From a virus: a DNA stretch of 64,000 nucleotides. A program made the position numbers and the translations under genes. The notes under the pieces are model-generated. The model did not search any database. It saw only the letters and a program-made list of their open reading frames with translations, and was not told where the DNA came from. How positions within the stretch are numbered: position 1 is the stretch's first letter; the number at the start of each line of letters is the position of its first letter. The stretch spans positions 1 through 64,000 of the IMG/VR virus record IMGVR_UViG_3300017780_003691; one strand, 5' to 3'. This document shows positions 23,646-63,999 of the stretch, piece by piece.

Positions 23646-23654
23646 GAGCTATCA

Positions 23655-23963: not shown

Positions 23964-23964
23964 C

Positions 23965-31898: not shown

Positions 31899-31922
31899 GT
31901 CAGTTCTCCTGCGTGTCCATTA

Positions 31923-34661: not shown

Positions 34662-34664
34662 GTG

Positions 34665-35546: not shown

Positions 35547-37318
35547 CAGACGATCTCCGAGTTCGATTGGTCGTCGCCGTCTTTCGCGGACCACGGTTGA
35601 GTTTGCACAGTGAAGGCGACCTGGCAAACTTCGTCCGTCAGGAACTCGAAGCTGCACTGGTCGGTCGCGAAGCGCCACAGGGGCACCCAGCAAATCTTCT
35701 CCACGTCTTCGAGGTCGATGTCCTGGCCCATGGTCTCGGTGAGTTGGATGATGCTCTGCCCGTCACCGTTGGAGTCGACCTCGGCGAAGATGTCCGCGAT
35801 CTGCTTGTAGACGATGGTGCCGTCGAGCAGGACCAGAGCGACTCCCGCGCCGAAGCGAACCGGGTCATCCGCGTAGGTGCCTGCGAACTCCACGCCATCG
35901 ACCACGATGATGTCGTCTCCCGACACCCAGCCTTGCGCGGCGTCGATGTCATACTCCCAAGTCGGCATGTAGAACTCACGGCACTGCCCGGCGCAGCGGA
36001 AGAAGAACTCCCGCAGCATCTCGGACTGTGCGAAGTCGCGGCCCGTGTAGTTGAGCACCAGGCGCTTCTGCTGGAAGTCCACGTCCGCGATGCGGTCGAC
36101 TCGGCCGACCTCGAAGTTGATGAAGACCGTCGGGTGGTAGTCCACCGTCTGCGGCGGGTCAGCCCAGTTCGGCTTCTCCAGCCAAAGCTCTCGCGAGTCG
36201 AACGTCTGGAGCGGCGAGGTCGCGGGCTCGACAGCCTGCGTGCCAGGTCGAACGAAGAAGCGCGGCGTCACCGTCTGCACGGTGTTGGTGAGCATGTTGC
36301 CGCTCGTCTCGTCTGCGATGAAGCAGGAGAGCGCGGGGTAAATCTTGGTGCCGACAGGCCACTCGATCTCGTCGTCCGATTTGAAGCGGACCAGGGGTGC
36401 GGAGTTGGAGTCCTCCGTCTCGAAGTCCACACGACGCAGCGACCAGTTCGTTCCATCGTGCAGGATCACATAGGCGTTGTTCTCCGCCAGCCACCACGGG
36501 ATGTCGCCGTCGATGTAAGCCTCCAGCGTCTCGGCCGGCATGACGGCAGAGGTCGTGACATAGCGCGTGATCTCAGGGACGAAGAACCGACCGCGTTGGT
36601 TGCCCACCATGAGGCGCTGATACTCGCGACGCTCAAGCCGGGTGAGCGCGACCTCGAACTCCACCTGCATACGCGGGGTCTGCCGGTATTGGATACGCTG
36701 CTCGCGCCCGTTCGCCGAGGTGATGACCTCGGTGAGGAAGGCGTACTCGATGTTGTAGGACGCGGCCCAGTTGGGTTTGTATTCCCAGACCTGATCCGTC
36801 AGTTGCGGAACGCGGAAGCCGGTGACATCGAGTTCGAGGATGTCGCCAAGATCGAAGGACAGCGTGAAGGAGTCCGAGAGCACTGTCTCGCCTTCGCCAT
36901 CCGCCGTGAACGAGAGCGTCTGGATTTGCAGGGCGCCGAATGCGACAGGCACCGTGCCGTCGTATGCGACCTCGGTGCCGAATGCCGGCGTCACAGTGTT
37001 GAGCACTGCGTCGTCGAAGTAGGCGTTCCACACGCGGACCTGGATCGTGGTGTCAGCCGCGAAGGTGCCATAAGCCAGTTCGTTCGGGATCAGGTAGATG
37101 CGGAAGTAGAAGTCGTCGAGGAACGTGAACTGCCGCTCGCCCGTGCGCTGCTCCCAAAGCGTCTGCACCATGAAGTAGTTCGTGTCGGGACCAGTGATCC
37201 CGGACTCCAACTCCTGCGCGTGCGTGCGTGCGCCAGGCTGCACAGCGCCAGCGACGCCGGTAGCTGCGCTACCAGGCGTCGTGAACGTCTCCATGAGAGG
37301 CTGGATCGAGCTAGCCAT
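35546..37318 (-). CDS. distal tail / baseplate-region structural protein
   Basis: ATG 37318 (MASSIQPLMETF...) overlapping upstream stop; contains EDSNSAP motif. Confidence 0.45.
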   Translation of the reverse strand: MASSIQPLMETFTTPGSAATGVAGAVQPGARTHAQELESGITGPDTNYFMVQTLWEQRTGERQFTFLDDFYFRIYLIPNELAYGTFAADTTIQVRVWNAYFDDAVLNTVTPAFGTEVAYDGTVPVAFGALQIQTLSFTADGEGETVLSDSFTLSFDLGDILELDVTGFRVPQLTDQVWEYKPNWAASYNIEYAFLTEVITSANGREQRIQYRQTPRMQVEFEVALTRLERREYQRLMVGNQRGRFFVPEITRYVTTSAVMPAETLEAYIDGDIPWWLAENNAYVILHDGTNWSLRRVDFETEDSNSAPLVRFKSDDEIEWPVGTKIYPALSCFIADETSGNMLTNTVQTVTPRFFVRPGTQAVEPATSPLQTFDSRELWLEKPNWADPPQTVDYHPTVFINFEVGRVDRIADVDFQQKRLVLNYTGRDFAQSEMLREFFFRCAGQCREFYMPTWEYDIDAAQGWVSGDDIIVVDGVEFAGTYADDPVRFGAGVALVLLDGTIVYKQIADIFAEVDSNGDGQSIIQLTETMGQDIDLEDVEKICWVPLWRFATDQCSFEFLTDEVCQVAFTVQTQPWSAKDGDDQSNSEIV

Positions 37319-38388
37319 TACGCACCCGCAGAGTTCGAGTCTTCCTCGCCGACAGCGTAGGCATAGCCCACCCACAGGGAAGTCTCAAACTCGGGCGGGT
37401 TCGAGCCAGAGTTGGTCGACTCGGGCATGGTCGTCTCCGCGCGGCGAGCGTGCGAGGGGAAGACGCGCCAGAGCATACCACCGACGATGATCTCTGCGCC
37501 CGGCTGGAGGTCTTGCATGTTGACGTGACGCACGCCGGCAGGCTTGCCGATGGGCCGGAACTCCACGTCGCCGACGATGGGGTCTGCGTTGTAGAGGTTG
37601 ATCGGCGAGAGCATCTGCTGGTTCGCGAACGGCGAGCGACCGCGTGCGAGGTAGCCATCGTTGATCGCATCGTTGTAGCCACCGATGACCGCGTTCACAG
37701 GGAAGCTGAGCAGCGGCGTTGTGTTGGTGGCCGTCGAGCCCTTGAAGAAGCGCCACGGGTAGAGGTTGTCCGCGTGCTCCACATGCACCCCGCCGCACTC
37801 CGCCGCGACCCTGCGATCACTGCGGGCGCCGAAGAGGTACTTCATGTTGATGCTGTAGTATTCGCGCGTGGACGACGAGCTACCAGGTCCGTCAGTCGTG
37901 CCGATGCACTCGCCGCCCTGATAGTCGCCGACCTTCTCAAGGTTGCCGATATACATGTGGCGGTAGAGGTTCGCGCCATACTCCACGATGATCGCGATGT
38001 AGGGCTCGGGGGTGAGCGCGCCGATCAGGTGAAGCTGCGTCGGCAGGACCACGGCCGGCGATCCAGCGCCGACGATAGGCGACGCGAAGACGGCGGCTCC
38101 GACTTGCAGCGCGTTGATCGCGGAGTTGGACTCCTCGTCGTATTGGTGGCCCGCGACCGACAGGGTGTGCGTGCTCCCGGCGACAGACGCGGTGACGCGG
38201 AACGGGATCGCATCGCTCGCCTCGAAGGCGGAGTTCGATCCGGAGTTCGAGTCGCCGCCCTGCGGCCTGCGGATGATCGGGGTGGACGGAGTCGTGAGGT
38301 CCGTCTCCCACCCGATGGTAGCAGCGAATGCCCCGACCAAAGTCGGGACATCCGTGATCGCGCTGATGGAGTGGATTTCGTAAGCCAT
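37318..38388 (-). CDS. tail structural protein, paralogue of 38388..39452
   Basis: Starts MAYE..., ends ...EEDSNSAGA; similar length to neighbouring paralogue. Confidence 0.45.
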   Translation of the reverse strand: MAYEIHSISAITDVPTLVGAFAATIGWETDLTTPSTPIIRRPQGGDSNSGSNSAFEASDAIPFRVTASVAGSTHTLSVAGHQYDEESNSAINALQVGAAVFASPIVGAGSPAVVLPTQLHLIGALTPEPYIAIIVEYGANLYRHMYIGNLEKVGDYQGGECIGTTDGPGSSSSTREYYSINMKYLFGARSDRRVAAECGGVHVEHADNLYPWRFFKGSTATNTTPLLSFPVNAVIGGYNDAINDGYLARGRSPFANQQMLSPINLYNADPIVGDVEFRPIGKPAGVRHVNMQDLQPGAEIIVGGMLWRVFPSHARRAETTMPESTNSGSNPPEFETSLWVGYAYAVGEEDSNSAGA

Positions 38389-39452
38389 TAGCTGTTGCTC
38401 TCCTCGTTCGCGATGTAGGCACTGTTACTATCTTCCGGCCCGCGTGTCACGGCGAACCAATTGCCGAGGGCGGTGCGGAAGGCGTTCTGGAAGACGATGT
38501 GGACGGAGTTCTCCGCCTGGATCACGTTCTCGATGGTCTGGCCGCGACCGGGCACGCGGTAGACGCCATCAAGCACACCGAAGGTCTGATCGCTCGGGCT
38601 GGCCTGCGTGAGCGTGAACGGCGTCAGGGTGAAGCCGTCGCCATAGGCCGCCTGCTCGCGAGCACTGACGCTCTCGTAGCCGTACTGGCCGGCGCCCGAG
38701 TTGTTCTGGCCGCTGTTGAGCACGGCCCCGAGGCCGAGGCCCACACCGAACCACGCAGGGCCGATGTTGGCCGGCGCCGACGTGTCGTTCTTCGAGACCT
38801 TCAGCCAGTTGCCCGAGGGATCGAGCATCCATGCCGACGGGTTGTAGCCGCTCGATCCGCTCGACGAGTTCGAGTTCGAGAAGCAGAACAGCGAGTGGTC
38901 GTCGGCAACCGAGGTGTGCGAGGTCGCCTCTTGCGATCCGCCCGAGCCCGCCGATCCACCGATGAACATCGGATACGTGTAGACCGTGGGGTCCGCGTAG
39001 GGGAGGAAGAAGCCGGCATACATCGCCTCATAGACGGTGCCGACCTGGACGACGATGATGAAGCGGCGGCCGTTGGCGATGAACCAATAGCGCATCGTGT
39101 TCGGGCGCGTGAACATCTTGACCGGATACGGGGTCATGTTGACGTGCAGGTTGTAGGCCGTCGCCGACTCCACGACACCCGTGCAGCCGCGCATGTACCA
39201 TGTGCTCACATCGCCCGTGATGTTCGAGTCGTCACGGCGCATCGCGACATACACCGAAGCATCGTCCGCGAGACCGGGGCCGCGCAGAACGACGCCGAGG
39301 CTGGCGTCATCGGAGTCGCTGTTGGAGTCAGAGCCCCACGCGATGTCCCAGTTCTGCCCGAGAGCTACAAGCTCCGGGTCAGTGGTGATGAACGAGATGA
39401 AGCGGTCCCAGAGGTCCGCGTGATCGGTGGCCGTGCCAGTTTCGTATGCCAT
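38388..39452 (-). CDS. tail structural protein, paralogue of 37318..38388
   Basis: Starts MAYE..., ends ...PEDSNSAYIANEESNS; directly downstream of tape measure. Confidence 0.45.
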   Translation of the reverse strand: MAYETGTATDHADLWDRFISFITTDPELVALGQNWDIAWGSDSNSDSDDASLGVVLRGPGLADDASVYVAMRRDDSNITGDVSTWYMRGCTGVVESATAYNLHVNMTPYPVKMFTRPNTMRYWFIANGRRFIIVVQVGTVYEAMYAGFFLPYADPTVYTYPMFIGGSAGSGGSQEATSHTSVADDHSLFCFSNSNSSSGSSGYNPSAWMLDPSGNWLKVSKNDTSAPANIGPAWFGVGLGLGAVLNSGQNNSGAGQYGYESVSAREQAAYGDGFTLTPFTLTQASPSDQTFGVLDGVYRVPGRGQTIENVIQAENSVHIVFQNAFRTALGNWFAVTRGPEDSNSAYIANEESNS

Positions 39453-45486: not shown

Positions 45487-46326
45487 TTACGAGTAGACCG
45501 GGCGGCCCGAGGCGTAGATCGCCGAGAACGAGGTACGCTTCAGGATTTCGACTTGGAACGGGATGACGTTCCACTCGTCGGATTTCAGGGCGTAGTCGCC
45601 GTTCGGGGATACCTTGATCCACGGGAAGAAGTAGTCGATGTCGTCGCCGACCGGGTTGAAGGCGATGAACTGCATCGCGCCTTCGACCGGCTCCGAGCCC
45701 GACAGGACACGGGTGTAGGACGAAGCGCGGATCGTGTAGGATACCTGAAGGTCGGTGCCTTCCGCGATCCCACCGCCAACCACGATGTAGAGGCGGCCCG
45801 TCTCGGCGTCGATGGTGTAGTCCGTGCCATAGACGTAGGCGGTGTTGCCCGCCGAGTTCGAGTCGTTCTCGACAACCGTGAAGACGCCGGCCGAGTTCGA
45901 GTCGTCGGCGTCGTAGGCGATCAGGCCCTTGGCGCCGGCCGGGCGGGCAGCCGAGATGCCAAGCTGGTAGTAGAGGCCCTGCTCGACATCGTTGACTTCC
46001 TCGGCCGTGATGACCGCACCAGCTTCCGTGACGGTCTCTTCCTCGCCGAAGAAGAACATCGCGACGTTCGCGATGTCGATGTTGTCGGTCGTGAAGGTGC
46101 CCGAGCGGTTGACCTGGAGCGCAATGCTCTCGTCCTTCTCGCGGATGCCGTGATCCGAGTCGAAGTGGTCGAGAACCTCTTGCTCGATGGTGAGCGAGAA
46201 CTCCGGCGTGTTCCCGATATACCGGAAACCCTTGGGGGTTTGGGTGCCCGTGACGAAGCGGGCGAAGTGAACCTCGCCACGACCCAGCGTGTAGTTGTTG
46301 GTGACAATGCCTTGTGCGGCGGCCAT
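45487..46326 (-). CDS. major tail protein
   Basis: ATG 46326 with CAGGAGATTCC RBS; beta-rich protein preceding the G/GT/tape-measure genes; contains DDSNSAG and NDSNSAG motifs. Confidence 0.55.
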   Translation of the reverse strand: MAAAQGIVTNNYTLGRGEVHFARFVTGTQTPKGFRYIGNTPEFSLTIEQEVLDHFDSDHGIREKDESIALQVNRSGTFTTDNIDIANVAMFFFGEEETVTEAGAVITAEEVNDVEQGLYYQLGISAARPAGAKGLIAYDADDSNSAGVFTVVENDSNSAGNTAYVYGTDYTIDAETGRLYIVVGGGIAEGTDLQVSYTIRASSYTRVLSGSEPVEGAMQFIAFNPVGDDIDYFFPWIKVSPNGDYALKSDEWNVIPFQVEILKRTSFSAIYASGRPVYS

Positions 46327-46403
46327 GATGGAATCTCCTGCTGGCGGTGGTCGGTGGTCTCTACGTGTTACAGCCTCAGTTGCGGCGTAAGTCAACGCCT
46401 CAC

Positions 46404-46958
46404 TTAGCTATAGGGATTCTCCAAGTCCTCGGCGATTTTCAGCCGGATCGCGAGCCAAAAGTACGCCTTGTCCGAGACCTCGTCTGGAGGGCGGCAAACC
46501 GGGCTCCCGATCTGCATGGATAGGACTGCCGGCTTACCATTGGCGAGCAGCACGTTCAACAGGGCAGGTGCTTGGCCCGTGGCCGTGCGGCCTCGGTCGA
46601 GCCGCTTCTTCTCTTTCGCCAGGCAGCGCACGACATCGGCCACCAGGAGGTAGGCGGGATCAGTGGGGTGGGCCTTGTCGTCCTTGGCGAAGCCCTGGAT
46701 CGAGATGTCCCAGTCGCCGGTCGAGTGCGGTGAGGTCGGGGGCGAGTCCACCTGATCGTTCGCGATAGGCGTCTCCAGGATCGCCAGCATCGGCAGGGGG
46801 TCGCCTGCGCCATAGAGGTTGCGGCCCCGGAAGACCTTCCCTGCGAGCGTGTGGTGGTAGCCCGTGGCCCCGCTGTTCGAGTCCTCCTCGGCGATGGTCT
46901 CCAGAAGCTCGGTGAGGCCCTGCATGATCCGCAGGCGAAGAGGGTATTGCTCGGCCAT
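46404..46958 (-). CDS. tail terminator / tail completion protein (lambda U-position)
   Basis: Syntenic position; contains EEDSNSGA motif. Confidence 0.4.
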   Translation of the reverse strand: MAEQYPLRLRIMQGLTELLETIAEEDSNSGATGYHHTLAGKVFRGRNLYGAGDPLPMLAILETPIANDQVDSPPTSPHSTGDWDISIQGFAKDDKAHPTDPAYLLVADVVRCLAKEKKRLDRGRTATGQAPALLNVLLANGKPAVLSMQIGSPVCRPPDEVSDKAYFWLAIRLKIAEDLENPYS

Positions 46959-47557: not shown

Positions 47558-48025
47558 CTACTCCTCCGGGGGAAGAGGGAGTCCAGCCGAGTCAGCGGCA
47601 TCAAGGCGCGTGATCCGCGCGGTGATCGTCTCCTGGTCGTGAGGTTCCACCACGTCGATGTAGTAGGCTTCTCCACTCGTGACAGAGAGCACGTCGCCAC
47701 GGGTGGGCGAGATGCCAGCGGCTTCGAGTTCGGAGCGCCAGAAGACGACCTTGGGGATCACGTCGTAGCGTTCGGCGGAGTTGAGCGAGGTGCCGGCTTG
47801 ATCGCCGAGCTTCGTGCCCTTCTCGTGGATGCGAACCTCGACCACGGGCAGGCCGTGCAGGTTGCCAGACGCGGAGCCCGAGAACGACCCGCTGTTGGAG
47901 TCATGCTCGGGTGATCCGCCGACGAGGTAGACGGCGCGGACTTTCATCGTCTGGTGGACCGTAGACCGGGCCGCCCGTTTGATGTCGCGCCATCCCATCC
48001 TAGTCTTCCTTCTTGGCTGCACCAT
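47558..48025 (-). CDS. head-tail adaptor protein (lambda FII-position)
   Basis: Syntenic position; contains EHDSNSG motif. Confidence 0.4.
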   Translation of the reverse strand: MVQPRRKTRMGWRDIKRAARSTVHQTMKVRAVYLVGGSPEHDSNSGSFSGSASGNLHGLPVVEVRIHEKGTKLGDQAGTSLNSAERYDVIPKVVFWRSELEAAGISPTRGDVLSVTSGEAYYIDVVEPHDQETITARITRLDAADSAGLPLPPEE

Positions 48026-48488: not shown

Positions 48489-49559
48489 TTAGGAGTTGGA
48501 GTCTTCCTCGACCACGCGGGCGTGGAACGAGCGGTTCGGGAACGGCGAGATCGCGAGCGGCGCCGACTGGGTCATGATGTTCATGGCCGACGGGTCTTGC
48601 TCGATCCACATCTTCGTGAACACCGGCTGAGCGAGCAGTTGCTCGATCTCCAGGATCGCGCCGTAGGCCGACACGCCGCCGTAGTCGGCGGAGGTGATGA
48701 CCAGGTCACGCGGGTTCATGATGTCCACGTGGTTGCCGCTGTTGTCCTCGTAGAAGTCTTCGTAGAGGACGAACGTGAGGCCCGGCACTTGGCCGACCAC
48801 GGTCCACGGAGCGTCCGGAGTACGCGCCTGGATCATGGAGCGGGCGATGGAGTTGCCTTCGCCGCCGCGCATGTTCACGTCCATGAGTTCGAGCAGCTTC
48901 GTGTTCGAGCGCATGACACGCCAGACTTCGCGGCCCAGCGTGACGACCGAGCCACGGCCGCCGAAGTCGGCGTTCGCCATCGCGTCGGTGTATTCCTGGA
49001 GCTTCGCCACGATGTCCGTGTTGGAGTCCCAGAAGCCGGTCGTGAGGATGTCGGTCAGCGCAGTGTCGCGGCCGTAGTCAACCTCGACGGTCGGGCCGTC
49101 CTGATACTCGACGAGCACCTTGCCGTAGGTCACGGCTTGGAACGCCATGATCTCCATGCGCCGCTCGATGATCTTGCGGTGATGTTCGAGGATCGCGGCG
49201 ATCTCCGCGTCGCGGTTCTGAGCCGGCGAGCGCGGGGAGTCGTCGAAGAGGTTGCCGGGGCGGCGGGTGAACTGCTCGCCAGGGATCACCGGGTCTTTCA
49301 GCTTGATGTAGGCAGGGCTGAAGGACGCGGCCGTCGAGCCACGGCGCCGGTAGGACGGACGGCCGGGGTTCTGCGGCAGGGAGAAGGTCGCAACCTCGCG
49401 GTTGCCGACGATCTTCTCCCAGATGATCGCTTGCTTGTCCGACTGGAAGATGTTGGACGTGAAGCCGCCGAGATTCCGCCAGTAGTTGGTGACGGTTTCG
49501 AGGCGCTGGTCGCGGAATACGCCCAGCAGCGCGCGGGGTGAGAGAACTTCGGTGGACAT
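48489..49559 (-). CDS. major capsid protein, lambda gpE-like
   Basis: Size (356 aa) and position after decoration and protease-scaffold genes; ends with ...VVEEDSNS. Confidence 0.8.
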   Translation of the reverse strand: MSTEVLSPRALLGVFRDQRLETVTNYWRNLGGFTSNIFQSDKQAIIWEKIVGNREVATFSLPQNPGRPSYRRRGSTAASFSPAYIKLKDPVIPGEQFTRRPGNLFDDSPRSPAQNRDAEIAAILEHHRKIIERRMEIMAFQAVTYGKVLVEYQDGPTVEVDYGRDTALTDILTTGFWDSNTDIVAKLQEYTDAMANADFGGRGSVVTLGREVWRVMRSNTKLLELMDVNMRGGEGNSIARSMIQARTPDAPWTVVGQVPGLTFVLYEDFYEDNSGNHVDIMNPRDLVITSADYGGVSAYGAILEIEQLLAQPVFTKMWIEQDPSAMNIMTQSAPLAISPFPNRSFHARVVEEDSNS

Positions 49560-49603: not shown

Positions 49604-50056
49604 TTATTCGCTCGGCGTGCCGGGCGTGGCGGTGCGGATTTGATCGACGCCGAGGGGCGTGCGGTCAAGAGCGCGGCGAAGCAGGGCCAGCGACCACGAG
49701 GCATCCTTGGCGATGACATCGTAGTTGAAGACGCCGTCCTTGTAGAAGGACACGTCCGTCACGTCGGCGCCGACTTCCGAGTTGGAGTCGCTGCCGCCGC
49801 TGTTCGAGTCATCGACCACGACCGCAGCCGAGGTGACGCCGACCGGCTCTTGCGAACCATCGGTCGCCGTCTGGACGGACGGGACGATGAGGCCCGTGCC
49901 GGTGACGCGGCCGACGAGCGTGTTGACGGGGATGTCAACAGTCGTCTTGCCGTATTCGACCAGGGTCGGGGCCTTGAACCACAGAGCGTTCGTCTGCGTG
50001 AAGGTGTCCGTGCTCTGTGCAGGGACGCCGGGCATGTTGGAGGTGAGGGCGGTCAT
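49604..50056 (-). CDS. head decoration protein, lambda gpD-like
   Basis: 150-aa protein between protease/scaffold and major capsid genes; contains a DDSNSGGSDSNSE insertion. Confidence 0.6.
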   Translation of the reverse strand: MTALTSNMPGVPAQSTDTFTQTNALWFKAPTLVEYGKTTVDIPVNTLVGRVTGTGLIVPSVQTATDGSQEPVGVTSAAVVVDDSNSGGSDSNSEVGADVTDVSFYKDGVFNYDVIAKDASWSLALLRRALDRTPLGVDQIRTATPGTPSE

Positions 50057-55513: not shown

Positions 55514-56132
55514 CCTCGATTGATGGATCAGGGCCGTGGTCGAGCGCGCTCAACGTGTTGCGGTGCTTCGGCATCTCGACCAGCGTGCGGTAGAGGTCTT
55601 CACGCAGCGCGTCGACTCTGGCGATCAGGGCGACGTATTGCTCGCGGGGCATGTTGGCCTCGCGCTCCACATCGTCGGCCCAGACCTGAGTCGTCTGCTT
55701 GACCCGCTTAAACGCCTCGGCGAGCACTTCGAGCACGCTCTCGGTCGGCCACAGTTCGCCGGCCGTCTGCTGGTACTTGAGCCGCTTGTTCTCCGCGTCC
55801 CAGAACTCTTTGCGGAGCATCGGGGGAAGCTCCGTCGGGTTCATCGTCTTGATGTAGTCGCGGATGTCGAAGCGCGGTTTGATGAGGTAGGAGAGCGCCA
55901 GCAGCGGGTCATAGAGTTCGGAGCCCGACATCTTCGCGATGGCGGGGCAGTCGCTCAACCGCTTCTTGACGGTCTTGCGATCCATGCGCGTGAAGCCCGA
56001 GAGCCATGTGAGCGAAACACCCTTGCGGAGCTTCGCCCAGTCGGTCTCGACCGTGTCGCGCTCGACATCCTCGGGCTCCGGTGTTGATCCGGGTCCGAGG
56101 ATGTCGTCCATGTTCCGACGGCGGCGCGTCAT
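55494..56132 (-). CDS. terminase small subunit
   Basis: HTH-like VSLTWLSGFTRMDRKTVKKRL; lies immediately upstream of and overlaps the large subunit gene. Confidence 0.55.
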   Translation of the reverse strand: MTRRRRNMDDILGPGSTPEPEDVERDTVETDWAKLRKGVSLTWLSGFTRMDRKTVKKRLSDCPAIAKMSGSELYDPLLALSYLIKPRFDIRDYIKTMNPTELPPMLRKEFWDAENKRLKYQQTAGELWPTESVLEVLAEAFKRVKQTTQVWADDVEREANMPREQYVALIARVDALREDLYRTLVEMPKHRNTLSALDHGPDPSIEVDDEAE

Positions 56133-56133
56133 G

Positions 56134-56907
56134 CTATTTCCAGTGTTGCTTCAGCCAAGGGGAGATCGCCTGGCGTTCGGGCTTCCAAGGTGAGTGGGGG
56201 CCGTTGCACTGGATCATACGCGCACCTTTGGGGATCGGTCCACCCGTGGGTTCGTGCTTCAGTTCGTCCACGAGGTTGCGCTGGCGCCACGAGGCGTAGT
56301 GCCAGAGGTTGCGGGGGCAGATGTCGTCGCGATAGCAGTAGAGGCCGTCCTCGCGCGTGATCTTCGTGATCTTCTTGTTGGCCTTGATCGCGAGCCACGC
56401 CTGATCGCTGCCGCCGTAGCGCAGGCCGCGACCCTTGACGTTGTTCTGCCAGAGGTTGCGGTCGAACTCGGTGTAGACCTCGGGGGCCACACCATGATCC
56501 GCGATGACGATGGAGCCGTTGACCGGCTGCGGGCCAAGCTCGACGCCAGACATGAGGAAGGGCTCGGTGCGACCGAAGATCGGACTGCAGTCGTCAACCA
56601 GCACCATGTCGAGATCGAACCACGCCCAGCGTGGCTCGGGGATGATGTCGCGGAAGGAATTGTCGAAGCACTTCAGACGGACGAGGCACTTGCCGCCTTG
56701 GTCCGCGAGATCATTCCACAGAGGCACGACCTGGTCGCCCTCGGCCTTGAACCGCTCGCGTGTCACCTTGGAGTCGGAGATCACCACGATCCTGTACGGG
56801 ATGTGCAGGTGTCGCCCGAGCATGTTCTTCATGACCCTGATGTAGTCGTCGGGGAACTTATTCCCCCAACTCCACAGGATGATCGGCAGCACGTTACTCG
56901 TAGTCAT
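56134..56907 (-). CDS. putative glycosyltransferase (GT-A-like, DLDMVLVDD DxD-type motif)
   Basis: ATG 56907; pattern PIILWSWGNKF...YRIVVISD...WFDLDMVLVDD resembles nucleotide-sugar transferases. Confidence 0.4.
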   Translation of the reverse strand: MTTSNVLPIILWSWGNKFPDDYIRVMKNMLGRHLHIPYRIVVISDSKVTRERFKAEGDQVVPLWNDLADQGGKCLVRLKCFDNSFRDIIPEPRWAWFDLDMVLVDDCSPIFGRTEPFLMSGVELGPQPVNGSIVIADHGVAPEVYTEFDRNLWQNNVKGRGLRYGGSDQAWLAIKANKKITKITREDGLYCYRDDICPRNLWHYASWRQRNLVDELKHEPTGGPIPKGARMIQCNGPHSPWKPERQAISPWLKQHWK

Positions 56908-57514
56908 GTTCTTTTCCCTCTTCGAGATATGGGTAGGCTTTGAGCGCGGAGTCAGGGTTGAGGTTATAGACCTTGCAACCAATCCGCTTGAGATCGCGAG
57001 GCTGACGGGCGAGGCCCCACTGCTGGCGTTTGTAGCGATCATTCCAGTCTTCCGTCAGCGTGCCTGTGAAGTGGCGTTCTTTGTTGGGGCCGGGCTTCGC
57101 GTCCACGCCCACCAGGAGGATGCGGCGCGATCCACGGAGGACGGCGTAGTTGATGGCGAGCGCGGTCGTCGTGAAGGTGCCGCGTAGTTCGTTCGGGTTC
57201 GTCGAGAGCCCGCCGCCGGCCACCTTCGGGATGAACCGCACGCGCTCGTCGTGTAGTTCTTCAGGCAGCGGCTTCGGGTCGGTGTAGAGGATCAGCGGGC
57301 CTTTGTAGCCTGACAGGTCTGGCGTGCGGCGCGCGTACCGATGATCGCCGATCATCAGCACCTCCGCGTGCGGAACCTTCAGGTAGCCGTCCTTCACCGC
57401 TATCGTCTTCAGGCCCGCGATGCGCTCGAAGTTGAACGAGTTCACCGACGGGCCCGACGCGACGATAGCGACCGTGCAGCCTGCCCAGTCACGAGGAACG
57501 CGGTGCGGCTTCAT
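56894..57514 (-). CDS. DUF115/MptE-like (Maf-type glycosyltransferase-like) protein
   Basis: ATG 57514 (MKPHRVPRDW...); VAIVASGPSV...IAVKDG...ILLVGVDA motifs. Confidence 0.4.
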   Translation of the reverse strand: MKPHRVPRDWAGCTVAIVASGPSVNSFNFERIAGLKTIAVKDGYLKVPHAEVLMIGDHRYARRTPDLSGYKGPLILYTDPKPLPEELHDERVRFIPKVAGGGLSTNPNELRGTFTTTALAINYAVLRGSRRILLVGVDAKPGPNKERHFTGTLTEDWNDRYKRQQWGLARQPRDLKRIGCKVYNLNPDSALKAYPYLEEGKEHDYE

Positions 57515-58077
57515 TCGTCGTTCGCACCGATCCCGTCGTTCATGGCCGGGCGAACCAGCACAGCGAGTTCGATGCCGACTCGGGTCGGCTTGATCGGATC
57601 GACCTCGATCACTTCGCCGAAGTGGTTGCGCAGGCGCGACATCCACCACGGGGTCGGCTTGACGATCAGGTGCGCGTTGCGGCCATCGGCGAGCTTCTTG
57701 TTCGCGAGGCGCTGCGAGATCACCAGGAGGCCGCGCTTCTTCACGAGGCCCGCGATGTCGGCCAGCACGTTGTCGAGGAGTTCGGGCTCAATGTGTTCGA
57801 GCACGTCGTTGCACGTGACGAAGTCTGCGGGCTCGGGGCGCTTCGGCGCGGTGACGGGGTCGTAGCCCGCCGTCTTCAGAACCGGCATCTTCTGCGTGAT
57901 CTCCGCGAGCAGGTTGCCCTTGCCGCAGCCGTAGTCGAGGTAGGACAGCGCGCCCGCTCCGGTGATGTAGTCCATCACGCGCGGAGCCCAGGCGTCTCCC
58001 TTGCCACCATACTTGTTGTTGCGGCTGTGAAGCTCCGCGTTGAGCTTCAGGTATTCCTCGGAGATGAGCTTGGTCAT
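57511..58077 (-). CDS. class I SAM-dependent methyltransferase
   Basis: ATG 58077; motif I YLDYGCGKGNL, motif II DFVTCNDVLEHIE. Confidence 0.6.
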   Translation of the reverse strand: MTKLISEEYLKLNAELHSRNNKYGGKGDAWAPRVMDYITGAGALSYLDYGCGKGNLLAEITQKMPVLKTAGYDPVTAPKRPEPADFVTCNDVLEHIEPELLDNVLADIAGLVKKRGLLVISQRLANKKLADGRNAHLIVKPTPWWMSRLRNHFGEVIEVDPIKPTRVGIELAVLVRPAMNDGIGANDE

Positions 58078-58619
58078 TTGATCCTCGTGATGAGCACAGC
58101 TAGTTCGGATTTGGCTTTCGTCTCGTCGAGGATCGGAACCTCTTCGATCCTGTAGGGGCCGGCGAACGCGACGGCGATGGTCTGGAGCCACCACTCGCGC
58201 GGCTTCACCAGCGGGTGCGTGGCTTTCTTCTTCGGCGAGCGGTTGCGCAGGGAGATCGTGATGAGCGCGCCCTTGAGAGCGCAGCGGCGAATGTCTGTGA
58301 GCACCGCGTCATACATCTCGACCTCGACGTGCTCCATCACGTCGATGCAGGTGACGAAGTCGGCCGGGTCCGGTTCCTGGTGGCCGAAAGCGGGTTCGTA
58401 TTCCTTCGTCCACATCAGGGGCGAGTACGGCTTTCGCAGGGTGTAAACGCAGCGCGCGAGGCCGCTGCGACCCGCGCCGTAGTCAAGCAGGGAGGAGCAG
58501 CCGATCTGATCCATGTAGCCGGCGACGCGCTCGGCCCAGCGGTGGCCGATGACGCCGAAGTTCGGGTCTCGTGCGTGCAACGCGCTCAAGCGGTCGCGGT
58601 GGGCCCGTGTGATCGTCAT
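58074..58619 (-). CDS. class I SAM-dependent methyltransferase (paralogue)
   Basis: ATG 58619; LLDYGAGRSGL and DFVTCIDVMEHVE motifs, collinear with the neighbouring methyltransferase. Confidence 0.6.
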   Translation of the reverse strand: MTITRAHRDRLSALHARDPNFGVIGHRWAERVAGYMDQIGCSSLLDYGAGRSGLARCVYTLRKPYSPLMWTKEYEPAFGHQEPDPADFVTCIDVMEHVEVEMYDAVLTDIRRCALKGALITISLRNRSPKKKATHPLVKPREWWLQTIAVAFAGPYRIEEVPILDETKAKSELAVLITRIK

Positions 58620-59368
58620 GACTTCCCGCCGCCTTGCGTCTGCTTCTGTTGCTGCTCGCGCTCGAAGCGCAGGGTCGCGAGCGCGTGAGTCCAGTAGTCG
58701 CCGAACCGCACGGCCTTGTGGTTGTAGTGCCACGGGCCGCCGTTCGTGAAGTGGATGCCGGCCGGCGGCGCCTGCGTGGCAGAGACCTTCGGCCAGTCGT
58801 ATTCGCCTTCGAGCCAGTTCCACTCAAGCGGCAGGTCCATGATCTGCGCGTCCGGAGTCCAGGCGAAGCGGTGGAGGGCCTGCGGCGACGCCTCGTTCAC
58901 GTACTGCGGAGTCAGCGTCTTGCAGTGTGGGTTGTTGAACAGCATCAGCGACGACCAGTTCTTGCGCGGATAGGCCGTCTGCTTCTGGCCGTCCATCTTG
59001 ATCGACGCCTTGGGCGTGTAGTCGTGCTTCACGCAGGCGACGCTGTATTGGAAGGGGTTCGTCGCGGCCTGCTTCGCCTGCACGATCCGGAGCAGGTTGC
59101 GGATGTCCTGAGTGAACAGGAAGTCGCAATCCACGAAGAGAGCGGTGCCCTTGTAATCGCACAGGTGCGGAACGAGGAAGCGGGTGAAGGCGAACTGGGT
59201 CGAGGCGGGCTCGTCGGCCGGGCGGGTGTAGAGGCCCCGCTCCCGCAGGTTGTCCTGACGGACAGCACGGATCGCCAGCGGCATTGTGGTGAAGCGGCGG
59301 AGACTGTCCGCGCAGACCTCGAAAGCCTCGCGCTCGCGGTCATCATAACCGATGAAGACGTGTAGCAT
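58616..59368 (-). CDS. putative glycosyltransferase (GT-A-like)
   Basis: FIGYDDRE...TQFAFTRFLVPHLC...ALFVDCDFLF pattern resembling GT8/GT-A nucleotide-sugar transferases. Confidence 0.4.
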   Translation of the reverse strand: MLHVFIGYDDREREAFEVCADSLRRFTTMPLAIRAVRQDNLRERGLYTRPADEPASTQFAFTRFLVPHLCDYKGTALFVDCDFLFTQDIRNLLRIVQAKQAATNPFQYSVACVKHDYTPKASIKMDGQKQTAYPRKNWSSLMLFNNPHCKTLTPQYVNEASPQALHRFAWTPDAQIMDLPLEWNWLEGEYDWPKVSATQAPPAGIHFTNGGPWHYNHKAVRFGDYWTHALATLRFEREQQQKQTQGGGKS

Positions 59369-59403
59369 GTCAGTTCCCTCTAGTGCTGCCTTATAGCGCG
59401 GCC

Positions 59404-60849
59404 CTACCGCAATCGCAACTCTCGGTCGATGTCTTCTTTCGTGACCCTCACCCGGCTCCGGAGATCGTCCTCCTCGGCGGCTTTGCTGGCCTGGTTAGCG
59501 ATCACGTCCTCGTCCCTGGTGCCCCTCGCCAGGATGTGGCGGATGTAGACGTGCGGGGCCTCCTGGCCGGGCCGGGGCAAGCGCATGTTCAACTGCCTGT
59601 AGGTCTCGCCCGACTCCTGAAGGCCGTACCAGATCAGGTTGTGGCCGCCATACTGCATGTTGGTCCCGTGCGAGATGTTGCCGGGGTGGACGGCGAGGTT
59701 TCTGATCCGGCCGAGGTTCCAATCCTTGATCGCATTCTTTCCATACTCGTCGAAGAAGACGACCTTCCGGCCGAACCGCTTGCGGATCGCTTCCTTGTCG
59801 AACTTGTAGCTCCACGCGATCAGGGCGTGGTGCCCGTCGAGATCGCGGATCATGTCTTCGAGCACGTCGAGTTTGTAGCTATGGACGGGGATCGCGTTGC
59901 CGCGCTCCCGGTACATCGAGCCGTTGGCCCACTGGAGCAGCTTGCTCGTGAGCACGGCAGCGTTCACCGCTTCGATGTCTCGCTTCTCGTCGTAGGACTC
60001 TCGTGCGAACTTCCGATACTCGCGCATGAGCGAGGGCGGAAACTCGACCCACCGCGTGGTTGTTGGGTGCGAGATGACCGGCGGCAGTTTGATGTGGTCC
60101 TCGGCGCGCAGAGAGATCATCAGATCGGAGCACCGATCCATGATCTCATCCTTCGCGCCAGGTCGCGGCTCCAGCTTGAACCCGTTGTAGCTCTTGGAGA
60201 ACCATCGCTTCTCGAAGTCGCCCTTCTTGATGCCGAGGCGTTCGCCGCCGTCGAGGACATACATGAGGCCCCACATGTCATGGACGCCTTCAGGTGATGG
60301 TGTGCCGCTCATCTCGATCACACGCTCGCAGCACTTGCGCGCACGCGCGAGGATGCCGAAACGGGAGAGAGGCTTCGATCCTTTGCCGCCGCCAGCGCGC
60401 ACGGTGCGCTTGCGGCCTTCCTTCAACATAGAGGCTTCGTCGATGACGATGTAGTCCCAGAACCAGCCGTCTTCCTGGCCGATCTCCTGCCAGAGCCAGG
60501 CGAGGTTTTCTTTGTTGATGATGTGGATGTCCACATCCATGTTGAGGGCCGCTTTGCGCTCGGCCGGCGTGCCGCACATGACGGCATACGTGAGGCCGCG
60601 CAGGTGCCTCCACTTCGCGATCTCGGTCGGCCACGTGTCGGTCGCGACGAGTAGCGGCGCGATGACGAGCGTGCGCTTGGGCCTCTTCCGCTTGCGCTTG
60701 TCCTCTTCGAGGAAGGTGAGGACGGCGCAGGTCTTGCCGAGAGACATGTCGATTGCGAGCAGCGCCGACGGCAGGGCGTGGCACTTCATCGTGGCGTAGG
60801 TCTGATACCCACGAATCTCGAAGTCGAAGAGGGTCTTCTCAGCCGGCAT
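59404..60849 (-). CDS. SNF2-family DEAD/DEAH-box helicase
   Basis: Motif I DMSLGKT, motif II VIDEAS, C-terminal helicase domain motifs. Confidence 0.85.
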   Translation of the reverse strand: MPAEKTLFDFEIRGYQTYATMKCHALPSALLAIDMSLGKTCAVLTFLEEDKRKRKRPKRTLVIAPLLVATDTWPTEIAKWRHLRGLTYAVMCGTPAERKAALNMDVDIHIINKENLAWLWQEIGQEDGWFWDYIVIDEASMLKEGRKRTVRAGGGKGSKPLSRFGILARARKCCERVIEMSGTPSPEGVHDMWGLMYVLDGGERLGIKKGDFEKRWFSKSYNGFKLEPRPGAKDEIMDRCSDLMISLRAEDHIKLPPVISHPTTTRWVEFPPSLMREYRKFARESYDEKRDIEAVNAAVLTSKLLQWANGSMYRERGNAIPVHSYKLDVLEDMIRDLDGHHALIAWSYKFDKEAIRKRFGRKVVFFDEYGKNAIKDWNLGRIRNLAVHPGNISHGTNMQYGGHNLIWYGLQESGETYRQLNMRLPRPGQEAPHVYIRHILARGTRDEDVIANQASKAAEEDDLRSRVRVTKEDIDRELRLR

Positions 60850-61146: not shown

Positions 61147-63288
61147 TTAATCCTTGATCCAGACTTTGCCAATTGAACCCTTGGCATACAGGGGCAGTTC
61201 TTTCTCCGTGGCCCACGGCATGGGCTCACGCAAGCACTCTTCCATCGTCTTCAGCACCCACTCTGCCTTGCTCTCTTGAGCGATGGCAACGGGTTCGTCG
61301 TGGACGTGGAGGACGAGGCGGCCGACGTTGCGCGGCACGCGCTTGCGGAAGCGCATCATGCTCTCCGCGAGAATGTCGCGCGAGATGGCCTGGTCGGCGT
61401 TCTCGGTCAGCTTGCCGGGGTGCGTTTGAATGCGGACCCACTTGTTCTTGTCGTTGAGACCTTCGTAGCTCAGCGAAACCTTGTCTTTCGTTTTGTCGTA
61501 GTTCGGCTCGCGGCACAGATACTCGGGCAGGAACTTCTTCTGCTTCTCGCAGTAGATCAGGACCACGTCTTCGAGACGCGGGCGCATGTAGCTCAAGCAG
61601 CGGCCCGAGGGCAGCCACATCTGGAGGAACGGGCCGCTGCGGGCGAAGCGCACAGGGCCCGCCCACGCTTCCTTGTCCGTCTTCATCGTGTATTTGGCGG
61701 CCTTCTCGATCTCCCACCAATAGGCCACCGCGTCCTCATAGGTGTCGCGCCACACACGCACCGAGTCGATGGCTTCCTGCGCGGTGAGCTTCACGCCCAT
61801 GTTCCAGGCGTAGCCGAGGAGGCCCGTGGCTTCCATCTCGCCGGTCTTGTGGTTTTCTTTCTCCTCGCCCGCAGACAGCATGTAGCCGCAGCCCAGCACA
61901 CCCGGCTTCGCGACGGTACGCTTCTTCTTGTTCCCGGCGGCAACCTCGGCCGCGATCTGCTCATAGGTGTCGCCATACATCTTCGTCGCGAAGTCGATGT
62001 AGGGATCGAGGTTGTTGCGGAAGACGTTGAGAATCTTCTGGTCGCCCGAGAGATAGCCGAGCACGCGGTTCTCGATGGCGTTCAAGTCGGCGGAGACCAT
62101 CAGCATCCCCTTCGGCGCCTGCACCGTCGGGCGGATGCAGGTGGAGAGCATGTCGATGGGGCCGGGCTTATCCACGTCCTTCCACGACTTGTCGTAGATG
62201 AGTTCGAGCGACTCGGGCGAGAGGTGTTCGAGGTGTTCGACGCAGACCTCTTGCAGCTTCTCCAGCGCCGGGTGCGGGCGCGCGAGGTTCTGCGGCTGGA
62301 TGAGGCGACCGGACCAGCGCCAGGTCCGCTGCGCGCCTGCGAACTGCAAGCAGCCTTGGATCATGTCTTGATCGAGATCGACCGCGCGCTCCATGGCGTA
62401 GTATTTGTCGGTCGAGGTCTTCGCGATCTCGGCGCGCATCGCGAGCACTTCCCGCACGTCGTCGCGCAGGCGCGTGTCGTTCGCGGCCTTCTTCACGTGC
62501 GCGGCCTGCATGTCGCTGAAGCGATAGCCGTTGTCGTTGAGCCATTCGAGAAGCTGCGGGTTCGAGCGTGGGTTGCCGACGCCGGTCAGTTCCTTGATCC
62601 TGGCGTAGCGTTTCGCGCGCATGTGCTCGACGAACTTTATGGCGTTCGTCACGACGTTCATGTTGATCGGGATGCCGTCGTTGTTGATCTCGTGGTCGAG
62701 GCACCACAAGTCCCACTCATGCTGCGGCAAGTCCCACTTCCGGATGCGGTTGTAGATGCCGCGCTCCGCGCCGATGTCGCCTCGGTTGTAACCCTTGAAC
62801 TCGTCCCACTCGTCGGGATCGGTGAGATAGTCCGACCACTCCCACGGCTTGTGCTTGGTGGGTTTGCGGGGCTTGCAGAAGCGGTTGATGAGCGCCTTGC
62901 CGCGCGACTCCTTCTGGAGATCGAGGGGCAGGTCGAAGATCGGCCCGGCCATGCCGAGGGCCGTCGGCGCCGAGAGACACATCGCCTGCGTCTGCGTGCA
63001 GCGCCACTCGTCGGGGTATATCTCGACGCCGAGGACTTCCTTCCAAACCGCCATCTCCATAGCGGCGTTCCATGAGCGTTTCTGGACCTCGGGGTCGCGG
63101 ATCGCGTCGCGGAGATCGCTCGGCATCTTCTGCCCTTCGGCCGGCACCCACTGTTCGATGGGGCCCGAGTCGAAGGCATATGCGAGCATGAGAACTTTGG
63201 TGGACGGGTCGCGCGCATAGCGGCGAGCGCCGACCTTCTTGATGTCGGAACGAGACTTCGTCTCGAAGTCGTTGAAGAGGATCGTCAC
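61147..63288 (-). CDS. DNA polymerase I-like (family A) with 3'-5' exonuclease domain
   Basis: Exo I LFNDFET; PolA motif A ADLNAIENRVLGYLSGD, motif B RTVAKPGVLGCGYMLSA, motif C VLHVHDEPV. Confidence 0.9.
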   Translation of the reverse strand: MTILFNDFETKSRSDIKKVGARRYARDPSTKVLMLAYAFDSGPIEQWVPAEGQKMPSDLRDAIRDPEVQKRSWNAAMEMAVWKEVLGVEIYPDEWRCTQTQAMCLSAPTALGMAGPIFDLPLDLQKESRGKALINRFCKPRKPTKHKPWEWSDYLTDPDEWDEFKGYNRGDIGAERGIYNRIRKWDLPQHEWDLWCLDHEINNDGIPINMNVVTNAIKFVEHMRAKRYARIKELTGVGNPRSNPQLLEWLNDNGYRFSDMQAAHVKKAANDTRLRDDVREVLAMRAEIAKTSTDKYYAMERAVDLDQDMIQGCLQFAGAQRTWRWSGRLIQPQNLARPHPALEKLQEVCVEHLEHLSPESLELIYDKSWKDVDKPGPIDMLSTCIRPTVQAPKGMLMVSADLNAIENRVLGYLSGDQKILNVFRNNLDPYIDFATKMYGDTYEQIAAEVAAGNKKKRTVAKPGVLGCGYMLSAGEEKENHKTGEMEATGLLGYAWNMGVKLTAQEAIDSVRVWRDTYEDAVAYWWEIEKAAKYTMKTDKEAWAGPVRFARSGPFLQMWLPSGRCLSYMRPRLEDVVLIYCEKQKKFLPEYLCREPNYDKTKDKVSLSYEGLNDKNKWVRIQTHPGKLTENADQAISRDILAESMMRFRKRVPRNVGRLVLHVHDEPVAIAQESKAEWVLKTMEECLREPMPWATEKELPLYAKGSIGKVWIKD

Positions 63289-63456
63289 CGAGGACGACCT
63301 TTCTTGGCTTCTGCATCAGACAGAAGAGGGCGCACGTTGATTTCCCAATGGCGAAGGCGCCAGGCGGAATACGCCTCGCGCTTCTCCGCGTCAGTGGCCC
63401 CCTCCGGTAGTGAGGTCGGAGGGGGCACCGAGTCGTCTACATAGTAGGGTTTCGGC

Positions 63457-63999
63457 TCAGTCGTCATCGCGCGAGCGGCGACGGCTGGGGCGGTCGTCTT
63501 CTTCGTCGCGGCCACGGCTGCGGCTCGGACGGTCGTCGTCATCGCGGCTGCGGCTGCGGCTCGGACGGTCGTCCTCGTCGGCGTCGAAGCGTTCACGGCG
63601 CGAGCGAGGAGCTTCCTCCTCGGCGTCGCGGCTGCGGCTGCGGCTCGGACGGTCGTCCTCGTCGCGGCTGCGACCACGGCTCGGGCGGTCGTCATCGTCA
63701 CGGTCACGGCCGCGCGAACGCGAGGAGACGTAATCGCCCTCGTCGTCATCGGAGCCGTGGTCCTTGAACTTGCTGATGTCAGCAGCGCCCTTGCCGAACG
63801 CTTCGCCCTTGCGGAAATACTGGACGATCTCCAGCGAGGCGTTCACCTGGTCGTTCCACTCGTCGTAGGCGTAGATGCGAACGAGAGCGTTGACGTAGCA
63901 GCCGCCGTAAGGCTTGCCGTCCTTCGCGGTGGCGCGCGACATGTCGCGCAGGAAGACCTGCGGGGGAGACTTTTCCGGCGAGGCGGCCTTCAGGAGCAT
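63457..63999 (-). CDS. partial (may extend beyond window end) DNA-binding-like protein with Arg/Ser/Asp-rich repetitive C-terminal tail
   Basis: ORF reaches the window edge; C-terminal DDDRPSRSRSRD repeats encoded by DNA tandem repeats 63480-63720. Confidence 0.3.
   Translation of the reverse strand: MLLKAASPEKSPPQVFLRDMSRATAKDGKPYGGCYVNALVRIYAYDEWNDQVNASLEIVQYFRKGEAFGKGAADISKFKDHGSDDDEGDYVSSRSRGRDRDDDDRPSRGRSRDEDDRPSRSRSRDAEEEAPRSRRERFDADEDDRPSRSRSRDDDDRPSRSRGRDEEDDRPSRRRSRDDD

Follow-up and report, generated by a model that had tools for sequence, protein, structure and literature searches.

A predicted glycosyltransferase and methyltransferase operon and a strict DSNS tetrapeptide in a Casjensviridae-like phage: a candidate virion-glycosylation system

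To our knowledge, glycosylation of phage particles by the phage itself has been demonstrated so far only in a few mycobacteriophages; virion glycosylation was reportedly described by Freeman et al. in 2023 (Cell Host Microbe) for Che8, Corndog and Myrna. Here we analyze a candidate system of a different kind, encoded in a 64,000-nucleotide stretch of viral DNA (positions 1 to 64,000 of the IMG/VR record IMGVR_UViG_3300017780_003691; henceforth the window). It comprises an operon of five predicted glycosyltransferase and methyltransferase genes and a tetrapeptide, Asp-Ser-Asn-Ser (DSNS), that recurs on proteins of the virion. By function, the closest described system is the virion glycosylation of mycobacteriophages, and the capsid glycosylation of chloroviruses is also similar. 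According to the citation of the mycobacteriophage study in PMC12619734, the glycans reside on the C-termini of the capsid and tail-tube proteins; the same study is also cited in PMC12801897. The likeness is that phage glycosyltransferases would decorate the capsid and tail-tube proteins of their own particle, C-terminus included, and the DSNS of the capsid protein analyzed here is likewise C-terminal. On the other hand, the phage in the window is Casjensviridae-like, with nearest isolates that grow on alphaproteobacteria, its enzyme set consists of two GT8-fold enzymes, a Maf-fold DUF115 protein and two methyltransferases, and its tag is a strict, portable tetrapeptide found on about 15 virion proteins.

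In the chlorovirus PBCV-1, the capsid protein Vp54 is glycosylated by enzymes of the virus, such as A064R, a protein that combines two glycosyltransferase domains with a methyltransferase. The common features are viral cytoplasmic modules for glycosyl transfer and sugar methylation, glycosyltransferase-methyltransferase fusions, methylated capsid glycans and a non-canonical attachment site. PBCV-1 differs in being a giant virus of eukaryotes with N-linked glycans and another sequon, and its enzymes have no detectable sequence homology to those described here. Among cellular enzymes, the Maf flagellin nonulosonic-acid transferases (DUF115, PF01973; structure 5mu5), which use CMP-activated donors to modify Ser/Thr of their target protein, share the fold of one operon protein, which, unlike them, corresponds to their central domain alone and scores below the Pfam threshold; moreover, flagellin has no strict sequon, and the gene neighbourhoods examined here suggest 3-deoxy-D-manno-oct-2-ulosonic acid (Kdo) over pseudaminic or legionaminic acid as the donor sugar. 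The retaining, protein-acting GT8 enzymes glycogenin and GlyE (from the PsrP pathway of S. pneumoniae) are the top structural matches of another operon protein, with which they share a DxD motif and a C-terminal …G…PW, although at TM-scores of 0.5-0.58 and 10-16% identity, and with a Pfam GT8 match that is absent from one of the two GT8-like operon enzymes (GT_A2) and sub-threshold in the other (GT_A1). Finally, phage GT-A enzymes that glycosylate 5-hydroxymethylcytosine in DNA exist, some of them GT8-like (preprint 10.1101/2023.12.21.572611). Some of these are also encoded beside polymerase, helicase or terminase genes; the known ones cluster with a C5-methyltransferase and a 5mYOX/TET oxygenase, or with thymidylate-synthase homologues, and exhibit R…DDD…EDY/F motifs (10.1101/2023.12.21.572611), none of which was seen at the operon. 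As far as we can tell, what is new here is above all the portable and strict tetrapeptide, and also the set of enzymes and the group of hosts.

The operon and its co-variation with the DSNS tetrapeptide

The five open reading frames (ORFs) lie between the SNF2 helicase gene and the gene of the small terminase subunit (TerS), at positions 56134-59368 of the minus strand, and encode, in order of transcription, proteins that we designate GT_A1, MT1, MT2, DUF115a and GT_A2 (Table 1). An earlier sequence-only reading of the window had described them as late-strand genes with overlapping stop and start codons, and both coordinates and overlaps were verified: the junctions GT_A1/MT1, MT1/MT2 and MT2/DUF115a overlap by 4 nt each (ATGA) and DUF115a/GT_A2 by 14 nt. 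Independent gene calls in a separate assembly of the same phage (L008) give identical boundaries for all five. A single base separates the GT_A2 stop codon from the ATG of TerS, while the SNF2 stop codon and the ATG of GT_A1 are 35 nt apart, with a GAGGGA ribosome-binding site in this spacer. Promoter- and terminator-like sites are no more frequent than in shuffled sequence, which, together with the overlapping junctions, characterizes the five genes as an operon-like block inside a long minus-strand transcription unit. The gene order of that strand is PolA, VRR-NUC, SNF2, the operon, TerS, TerL, gpW, portal, protease, decoration protein, capsid and tail genes.

The phage has a high GC content, its PolA shares 46% identity with the PolA of Ruegeria phage DSS3-P1, and the hosts of its nearest isolates are Gram-negative; megablast of the region against phage records gave no match. 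The same operon has been found in the same slot in every close relative recovered (L004, L006, L008 and L018-L022), with an additional methyltransferase-like gene at the junction in L004. Complete genomes of the clade are represented by the IMG/VR UViGs 3300031991_000011, 3300022173_000074, 3300009982_000010 and 3300031991_000008. We compared this junction (56132-59404 in the window) with loci L003 and L023-L096 and found that in many more distant relatives SNF2 directly abuts TerS (0.6-0.9 kb from the end of SNF2 to TerL), whereas others hold 1.5-6 kb of different genes there, including an integrase in Ruegeria phage DSS3-P1. Since the junction is empty or differently filled elsewhere, it can be regarded as a hot spot for cargo genes, with the operon as the cargo of one clade.

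The annotated proteins of the window contain 23 copies of DSNS, against an expectation of 0.18 (an approximately 130-fold excess) obtained by shuffling residues within each protein; the maximum among 2000 shuffles was 3. It is spelt by 11 different codon sets, with sites in frame in genes of both strands, which led us to reject a DNA-level cause of the repeats and indicates that the tetrapeptide acts at the protein level. Among the structural proteins it is the most over-represented 4-mer (260-fold), exceeding even the collagen repeats, and its positions are nearly invariant: only two ESNS accompany the 23 DSNS, N is the sole residue seen at x in DSxS and S nearly the sole one in DxNS, while the flanks favour acidic residues upstream and G or A downstream. 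All 23 sites fall within 15 virion or fibre proteins, including the capsid and decoration proteins, two proteins of the connector region, the tail tube, five distal-tail or fibre proteins, a collagen/CBM fibre and the product of the gene after it, and one small protein. In contrast, DSNS is absent from the approximately 11,000 residues of non-structural proteins in the window (binomial p 1.6e-9, with portal, protease and terminase counted as non-structural and the tape measure as structural). The portal, protease, terminase and 1678-residue tape measure proteins, all without DSNS, would not be expected at the surface of the mature particle. A literature search for a motif of the DSNS type found nothing, and we know of no such sequon reported in phages.

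The relationship between tetrapeptide and operon was assessed in 80 portal-anchored loci of related phages, from which one (L017, a 5.7-kb fragment of a near-identical phage, without DSNS) was excluded as uninformative. Among the remaining 79, all five operon-bearing loci contain DSNS (2-8 each), while 66 of the 74 operon-free loci contain none, seven contain one and a single locus, L053, contains five (Fisher p 2.7e-7). This exception (IMGVR_UViG_3300025635_000596) is an 8.5-kb contig that stops 1.2 kb upstream of the portal gene, short of the operon position, and its five DSNS are found in the capsid C-terminus and in the decoration, connector and tail-tube proteins; we predict that it carries the operon in its missing upstream part.

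The alignments suggest how the tag was acquired. The capsid protein terminates with …ARVV[EDL]EDSNS followed by 0-3 residues (GG, AP or AGS) in operon-bearing relatives and with …RARVVA in operon-free ones. In the operon clade, each of the eight complete sequences of the decoration protein (the window, L005, L006 and L018-L022) has two DSNS, separated by a spacer that varies; they lie on an 11-residue insertion absent from non-operon homologues. The tag therefore looks grafted on, as a C-terminal extension in one protein and an insertion in the other, both only in operon phages. The sites in the connector region are kept in most clade members. In the tail-tube loop, some members (L018, L019 and L021) exhibit TSNS, SSNS or NSNS in place of DSNS, and the distal-tail protein encoded at 38388-39452 in the window terminates with …EESNS, so the tag may have S-N-S as its core and a preference for Asp ahead of it. 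The predicted phage glycosyltransferases thus co-vary with a feature of the virion proteins that is a candidate for their acceptor.

Enzyme families, domain fusions and related cassettes

None of the operon enzymes is a straightforward member of a known glycosyltransferase family, and those related to Maf/GT42 and GT8 fail the Pfam thresholds, which makes them distant relatives rather than members. GT_A1 matches the GT8 family (PF01501) with 16.2 bits (E 0.008), under the gathering score of 24.3 bits. Nine of 18 sampled members of its own family, which comprises 7711 homologous clusters, match GT8 at E<=0.01 (best 2e-6), and we therefore regard GT_A1 as a divergent GT8 relative. It exhibits an invariant D80-C-D82 (DxD) and a C-terminal IHFTNGGPW; comparison with the PDB revealed nothing significant by sequence search and nothing above threshold by profile search. 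GT_A2 has no match in Pfam, NCBIfam or PHROG and no significant one in the PDB by sequence or profile. Its AlphaFold2 model (mean predicted local distance difference test, pLDDT, 91.5) retrieved glycogenin as the best Foldseek match in the PDB (4e-10), followed by GlyE and 3tzt, and a phage protein annotated as 'GT family 8' in BFVD (1e-12, TM-score 0.68-0.71). In the alignment of its family, D98-x-D100 (DxD), GGSDQAW and NGxxxPW (NGPHSPW in GT_A2 itself) are invariant. The DxD and the C-terminal HxxGxxKPW-like motif of both enzymes correspond to those of GT8. GT_A2 had initially appeared restricted to the clade, with 27 proteins in a word-indexed search, but this was rejected after an exhaustive profile search found 2007 representative clusters, which limits any clade specificity to close orthologues.

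MT1 and MT2 are paralogous (37% identity, E 5e-32). MT2 scores 53.3 bits against the 27-bit cut-off of Methyltransf_23 and MT1 24.2 bits, slightly under it; motif I reads LDYGCGKG and LDYGAGRS, respectively, and for MT2 sequence search of the PDB gave nothing significant. DUF115a and its paralog DUF115b (E 1.5e-10), encoded beyond the tail-fibre genes, were both found to share the fold of the Maf central, GT42 and MptE domains. The closest structure to DUF115a is a flagellin glycosyltransferase, 185 residues of whose 632-residue chain are aligned, so the three-domain Maf architecture of about 600 residues is not present. DUF115a scores 15.4 bits with the MptE-like family (PF01973), below the 34.6-bit gathering threshold, and matches phrog_4603 at 1.4e-12; sequence search of the PDB gave nothing significant, and the profile matches, all sub-threshold, point to Maf, CstII and MptE. 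DUF115b matches phrog_4603 at 1.5e-32 and the Pfam MptE-like family at 2e-5 (24.7 bits, below the same threshold), is 33% identical to gp163 of Caulobacter phage C2 and has no significant PDB match by sequence search. Searches with DUF115b and with the J-like tail protein, meant to reveal whether DUF115b is conserved in the clade, returned no locus of a relative. We infer that DUF115b is functionally tied to the operon; a GT2-like gene on the plus strand is a possible further component of the pathway, although its membership is uncertain.

The families and folds agree with the gene-by-gene assignment of the sequence-only reading (GT-A-like transferases, methyltransferases and DUF115), and the resemblance to non-glycosyltransferase families that it had named as counting against a glycan pathway was not seen among the five ORFs. 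Its paralogies hold for MT1/MT2 and for DUF115a/DUF115b and fail for the GT-A genes: GT_A1, GT_A2 and the GT2-like protein share no detectable sequence similarity, a profile-profile comparison of the first two was not significant, and the three must be considered separate transferase lineages. No transmembrane segment was predicted in any of the seven proteins (the five operon enzymes, DUF115b and the GT2-like protein).

The four enzyme families of the operon are fused to each other in other proteins, which argues for their functional coupling. GT_A1-type domains are fused with domains of the MT family in three proteins (P0130, P0145 and P0152) and an MT-family domain with a GT_A2-type one in P0319. 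P0329, a phage protein of 1215 residues, combines DUF115, GT2, ATP-grasp and GT_A2 domains, and Foldseek searches of BFVD revealed a GT_A2-like domain in MptE-like proteins from uncultured phages. Related cassettes have also been identified inside or next to the virion modules of unrelated phages. A Mesorhizobium prophage encodes a cement protein, DUF115, GT9, an FkbM methyltransferase and a putative glycosyltransferase, followed by tail genes; Caulobacter jumbo phages encode a tail protein, DUF115, two unassigned proteins, GT_A1, MT, GT9 and a lysozyme; in a podovirus, MT and GT_A1 lie between capsid and tail genes; and related cassettes adjoin the portal gene in L007 and precede the tail terminator in L097. 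In the T4-like phages Mosig, DLP_6 and S-SCSM2R, on the other hand, the MT/GT_A1 pair is located outside the structural modules, in accessory regions, once beside a GT29-like sialyltransferase and once near KdsB and KdsA (cyanophage S-SCSM2R). DSNS-like motifs were not found in five other phages with cassettes (L001, L002, L007, L013 and L097), and a search for other enriched 4-mers in them revealed nothing convincing. The tag is therefore a property of the clade studied here and not universal to the enzyme families.

Bacterial homologs of GT_A1 have been found as well. In Sphingomonas, one lies between KdsA and KpsF. In a metagenome-assembled genome of an alphaproteobacterium (GCA_024743275.1, 1-20690; L010), another is accompanied by KpsF, a type I secretion ABC/HlyD pair and GT4 genes, and the locus also encodes an FkbM methyltransferase with a fused MT2-like domain, two TPR proteins of very large size and a giant adhesin with cadherin repeats; this may be a bacterial locus for adhesin or envelope glycosylation that uses the same pair of enzymes.

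A possible glycan coat and competing explanations

Glycosylation of the virion at DSNS sequons by the enzymes of the operon is, in our judgement, the best explanation of these findings and a reasonably probable one. It had been proposed by the sequence-only reading, and it has now gained comparative support from the excess of DSNS, its confinement to virion and fibre proteins, and the way the tags of related phages track the operon. According to this model, a late-expressed and translationally coupled operon of soluble cytoplasmic enzymes would build a short O-methylated glycan on exposed virion proteins. As the structural proteins accumulate in the cytoplasm, one transferase would recognize DSNS in loops and termini and start the chain there, most simply by linking a sugar to the hydroxyl of a Ser, although Asn is also possible. 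The remaining transferases would then lengthen the chain from the nucleotide-sugar pools of the host, a source suggested by ORF scans of the window, which detected no genes for nucleotide-sugar synthesis. UDP-sugars would serve as donors for the two GT8-fold enzymes and a CMP-activated ulosonic acid for the Maf/GT42-fold DUF115 enzyme, the two S-adenosylmethionine-dependent methyltransferases would cap sugar hydroxyls, and DUF115b, possibly with the GT2-like protein, would add further steps. With one tag on the capsid protein and two each on the decoration and tail-tube proteins, the particle would carry thousands of glycans, which would amount to a glycan coat.

As to the identity of the ulosonic acid, the sequence-only reading had hinted at sugars of the pseudaminic or legionaminic type, which the comparison does not support: homolog neighbourhoods contain KdsA, KdsB, KpsF and GT9 heptosyltransferase-like genes, and the window revealed no genes of the NeuB or NeuA type. 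Kdo appears to be a better guess, though only a guess, because DUF115 recurs with GT9, GT_A1 recurs with genes of Kdo synthesis, and most Gram-negative bacteria make CMP-Kdo. In its boldest form, which we consider doubtful, the model would make DSNS a minimal portable sequon at which a cytoplasmic machine encoded by the phage adds an O-methylated glycan with Kdo or another ulosonic acid to all exposed proteins of the virion, so that the coat of the particle would resemble the inner core of lipopolysaccharide (LPS). In that case the DUF115 enzyme would be the first protein-directed transferase of Kdo or another ulosonic acid outside flagellin systems, and tag and operon could be reused together for glyco-tagging in the cytoplasm.

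Several observations weigh against virion glycosylation. The attachment of a glycan is deduced entirely from sequence, and the Pfam GT8 match of GT_A1 lies below threshold. DSNS does not fit any known sequon; it differs from N-X-S/T, from D/E-X-N-X-S/T and from the D-S/T-A/I/L/V of Bacteroidetes. L006, which carries the operon, has no tag on its capsid protein. The operon phages all belong to a single clade, with at least 61% identity in the portal protein, hence the association may reflect a single evolutionary event, and the Fisher p overstates the independence of the loci. Besides, members of the GT_A1 family can probably act on acceptors other than proteins, given the T4-like pairs outside the structural modules and the bacterial GT_A1 genes in loci that resemble those for envelope polysaccharides.

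The last point leads to a different explanation, in which the operon remodels an envelope glycan of the host (LPS core, capsule or K-antigen, or a glycosylated adhesin) and DSNS is a motif of the clade with some unrelated structural or adhesive role; such remodelling could block superinfection or keep the progeny from sticking to debris. It agrees with the position of the Sphingomonas homolog between KdsA and KpsF, with the alphaproteobacterial GT_A1 beside type I secretion, KpsF and GT4 genes and an MT2-like methyltransferase, with the pairs of T4-like phages, and with cyanophage S-SCSM2R, whose homolog lies near KdsB and KdsA and whose describers interpreted such genes as serving cell-wall modification. 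We nevertheless find it unlikely, because it leaves unexplained why a strict tetrapeptide should be grafted onto 15 virion proteins in operon phages only and why at least five unrelated phages should have related cassettes between their head and tail genes. Phage enzymes that convert serotypes are typically membrane proteins, whereas all enzymes of the operon are soluble.

Alternatively, DSNS could be modified by another agent, such as a glycosylation or other post-translational modification system of the host, or could form a binding or metal site, with the operon directed at flagellin, pilin or a small molecule. That the closest structure to DUF115a belongs to an enzyme acting on flagellin, that pyrophosphokinases with small-molecule substrates have the same fold, and that the association at the level of a clade is confounded with its other traits, such as host range, are all compatible with this view. 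It would, however, demand that two independent clade-specific novelties coincide, no further candidate modifying enzyme was seen in the window, and DUF115a does not have the N- and C-terminal domains of Maf (206 versus about 630 residues), so that we rate it as improbable. Hypermodification of the phage DNA with sugars and methyl groups against restriction is very improbable: the replication genes PolA, VRR-NUC and SNF2 immediately precede the operon, and the window encodes a C5-methyltransferase, an MT-A70 enzyme, a dCMP deaminase, MazG and a dATP/dGTP diphosphohydrolase-like domain, but neither partner set of the known DNA glycosyltransferases is adjacent to the operon or present among the scanned ORFs, the C5-methyltransferase lies 42 kb away on the other strand, we know of no DNA-acting precedent for the Maf/sialyltransferase fold, and the co-variation of DSNS indicates protein targets.

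Should virion glycosylation at DSNS be confirmed, this phage would provide an example of self-glycosylation in the Casjensviridae-like group, with a different enzyme set and a sharply defined acceptor tag, grafted in evolution onto termini and loops of about 15 unrelated virion proteins. The new sequon and its enzymes would be of use in cytoplasmic glyco-engineering and in the production of glycoconjugates. It would also offer a functional handle on three large families, GT_A1 (more than 7,700 clusters), GT_A2 (more than 2,000 representatives) and the phage DUF115 proteins, and insight into how environmental phages shield or target their particles.

Other genes of the window

Table 1. Positions in the window, strand and assignment of the genes discussed (aa, amino acids; SAM, S-adenosylmethionine)
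Gene or protein	Position	Strand	Length (aa)	DSNS	Assignment and matches
GT_A1	58616-59368	-	250		Divergent GT8-like nucleotide-sugar transferase (predicted); phrog_28018 at 1e-54
MT1	58074-58619	-	181		Class I SAM-dependent methyltransferase; Methyltransf_23 at 3e-5, phrog_24759 at 2e-9
MT2	57511-58077	-	188		Class I SAM-dependent methyltransferase; Methyltransf_23 at 3.5e-14, phrog_24759 at 2.6e-23
DUF115a	56894-57514	-	206		Maf/GT42/MptE fold, central domain alone; candidate CMP-ulosonic-acid transferase
GT_A2	56134-56907	-	257		GT-A fold, GT8-like transferase (predicted); family without Pfam model
DUF115b	28802-29533	-	243		Second DUF115/MptE-like protein; last sizeable gene past the tail-fibre genes
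GT2-like transferase	11669-12451	+	260		phrog_13126 at 1.4e-44; weak Pfam GT2 matches
Head decoration protein	49604-50056	-		2	HDPD 3e-7; tandem DSNS in inserted loop; candidate acceptor
Major capsid protein	48489-49559	-		1	Phage_cap_E 7e-39; DSNS as last four residues (…VVEEDSNS); candidate acceptor
Connector-region protein	47558-48025	-		1	Head-tail connector region
Connector-region protein	46404-46958	-		1	Head-tail connector region
Major tail (tube) protein	45487-46395	-		2	phrog_807 1e-63; DSNS in variable loop; candidate acceptor
Distal tail/fibre genes	29530-39452	-		11	Region total
Distal tail/fibre gene	38388-39452	-		2	
Distal tail/fibre gene	37318-38388	-		2	
Distal tail/fibre gene	35546-37375	-		1	
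Hub protein	34665-35693			0	
J-like protein	31923-34235			0	
Distal tail/fibre gene	30852-31898	-		5	
Distal tail/fibre gene	29530-30852	-		1	
Collagen-repeat/CBM5_12 fibre	15695-18754	+	1019	3	Collagen 1e-25, CBM_5_12 1e-11, tail-fibre PHROGs
Gene after collagen fibre	within 15695-19183	+	139	1	
HNH endonuclease	10851-11672	+			Overlaps start of GT2-like gene
C5-cytosine DNA methyltransferase	14018-14941	+			
MazG	19971-20504	+			
dATP/dGTP diphosphohydrolase N-terminal domain protein	20485-21270	+			
'DNA transfer protein'	21276-23150	+	624		phrog_1745, E 5e-145
dCMP deaminase	23154-23645	+			
MT-A70 adenine methyltransferase	25782-26450	+			
HD-domain protein	26569-27159	+			

The collagen/CBM fibre contains several Gly-X-Y tracts and two CBM5/12 modules and is encoded on the 'early' strand, distant from the tail module. 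The C5-cytosine DNA methyltransferase is followed by an ORF of 235 residues (14991-15698), which was checked since TET-like oxygenases and glycosyltransferases are frequent partners of phage C5-methyltransferases; it matches no family, including these two. No TET_JBP or thymidylate-synthase match was found among the scanned ORFs of the window, which included every ORF of more than about 200 residues without other assignment (about 5.7 kb of the 69.7-kb contig lie outside the window), and homologs of PurZ, TET or thymidylate synthase were not seen.

The plus-strand genes from 19971 to 27159 form a nucleotide-pool and DNA-modification cluster, which suggests a system that uses a non-canonical base or manipulates the nucleotide pool. 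At the other end of the window, an ORF that runs off its edge (63285-63999, minus strand) encodes a long low-complexity tail, rich in D and E and with R-S-R repeats (…DDDRPSRGRSRDEDDRPSRSRSRD…). It sits upstream of PolA, where related phages encode a single-stranded DNA-binding protein of the Enc34 type.

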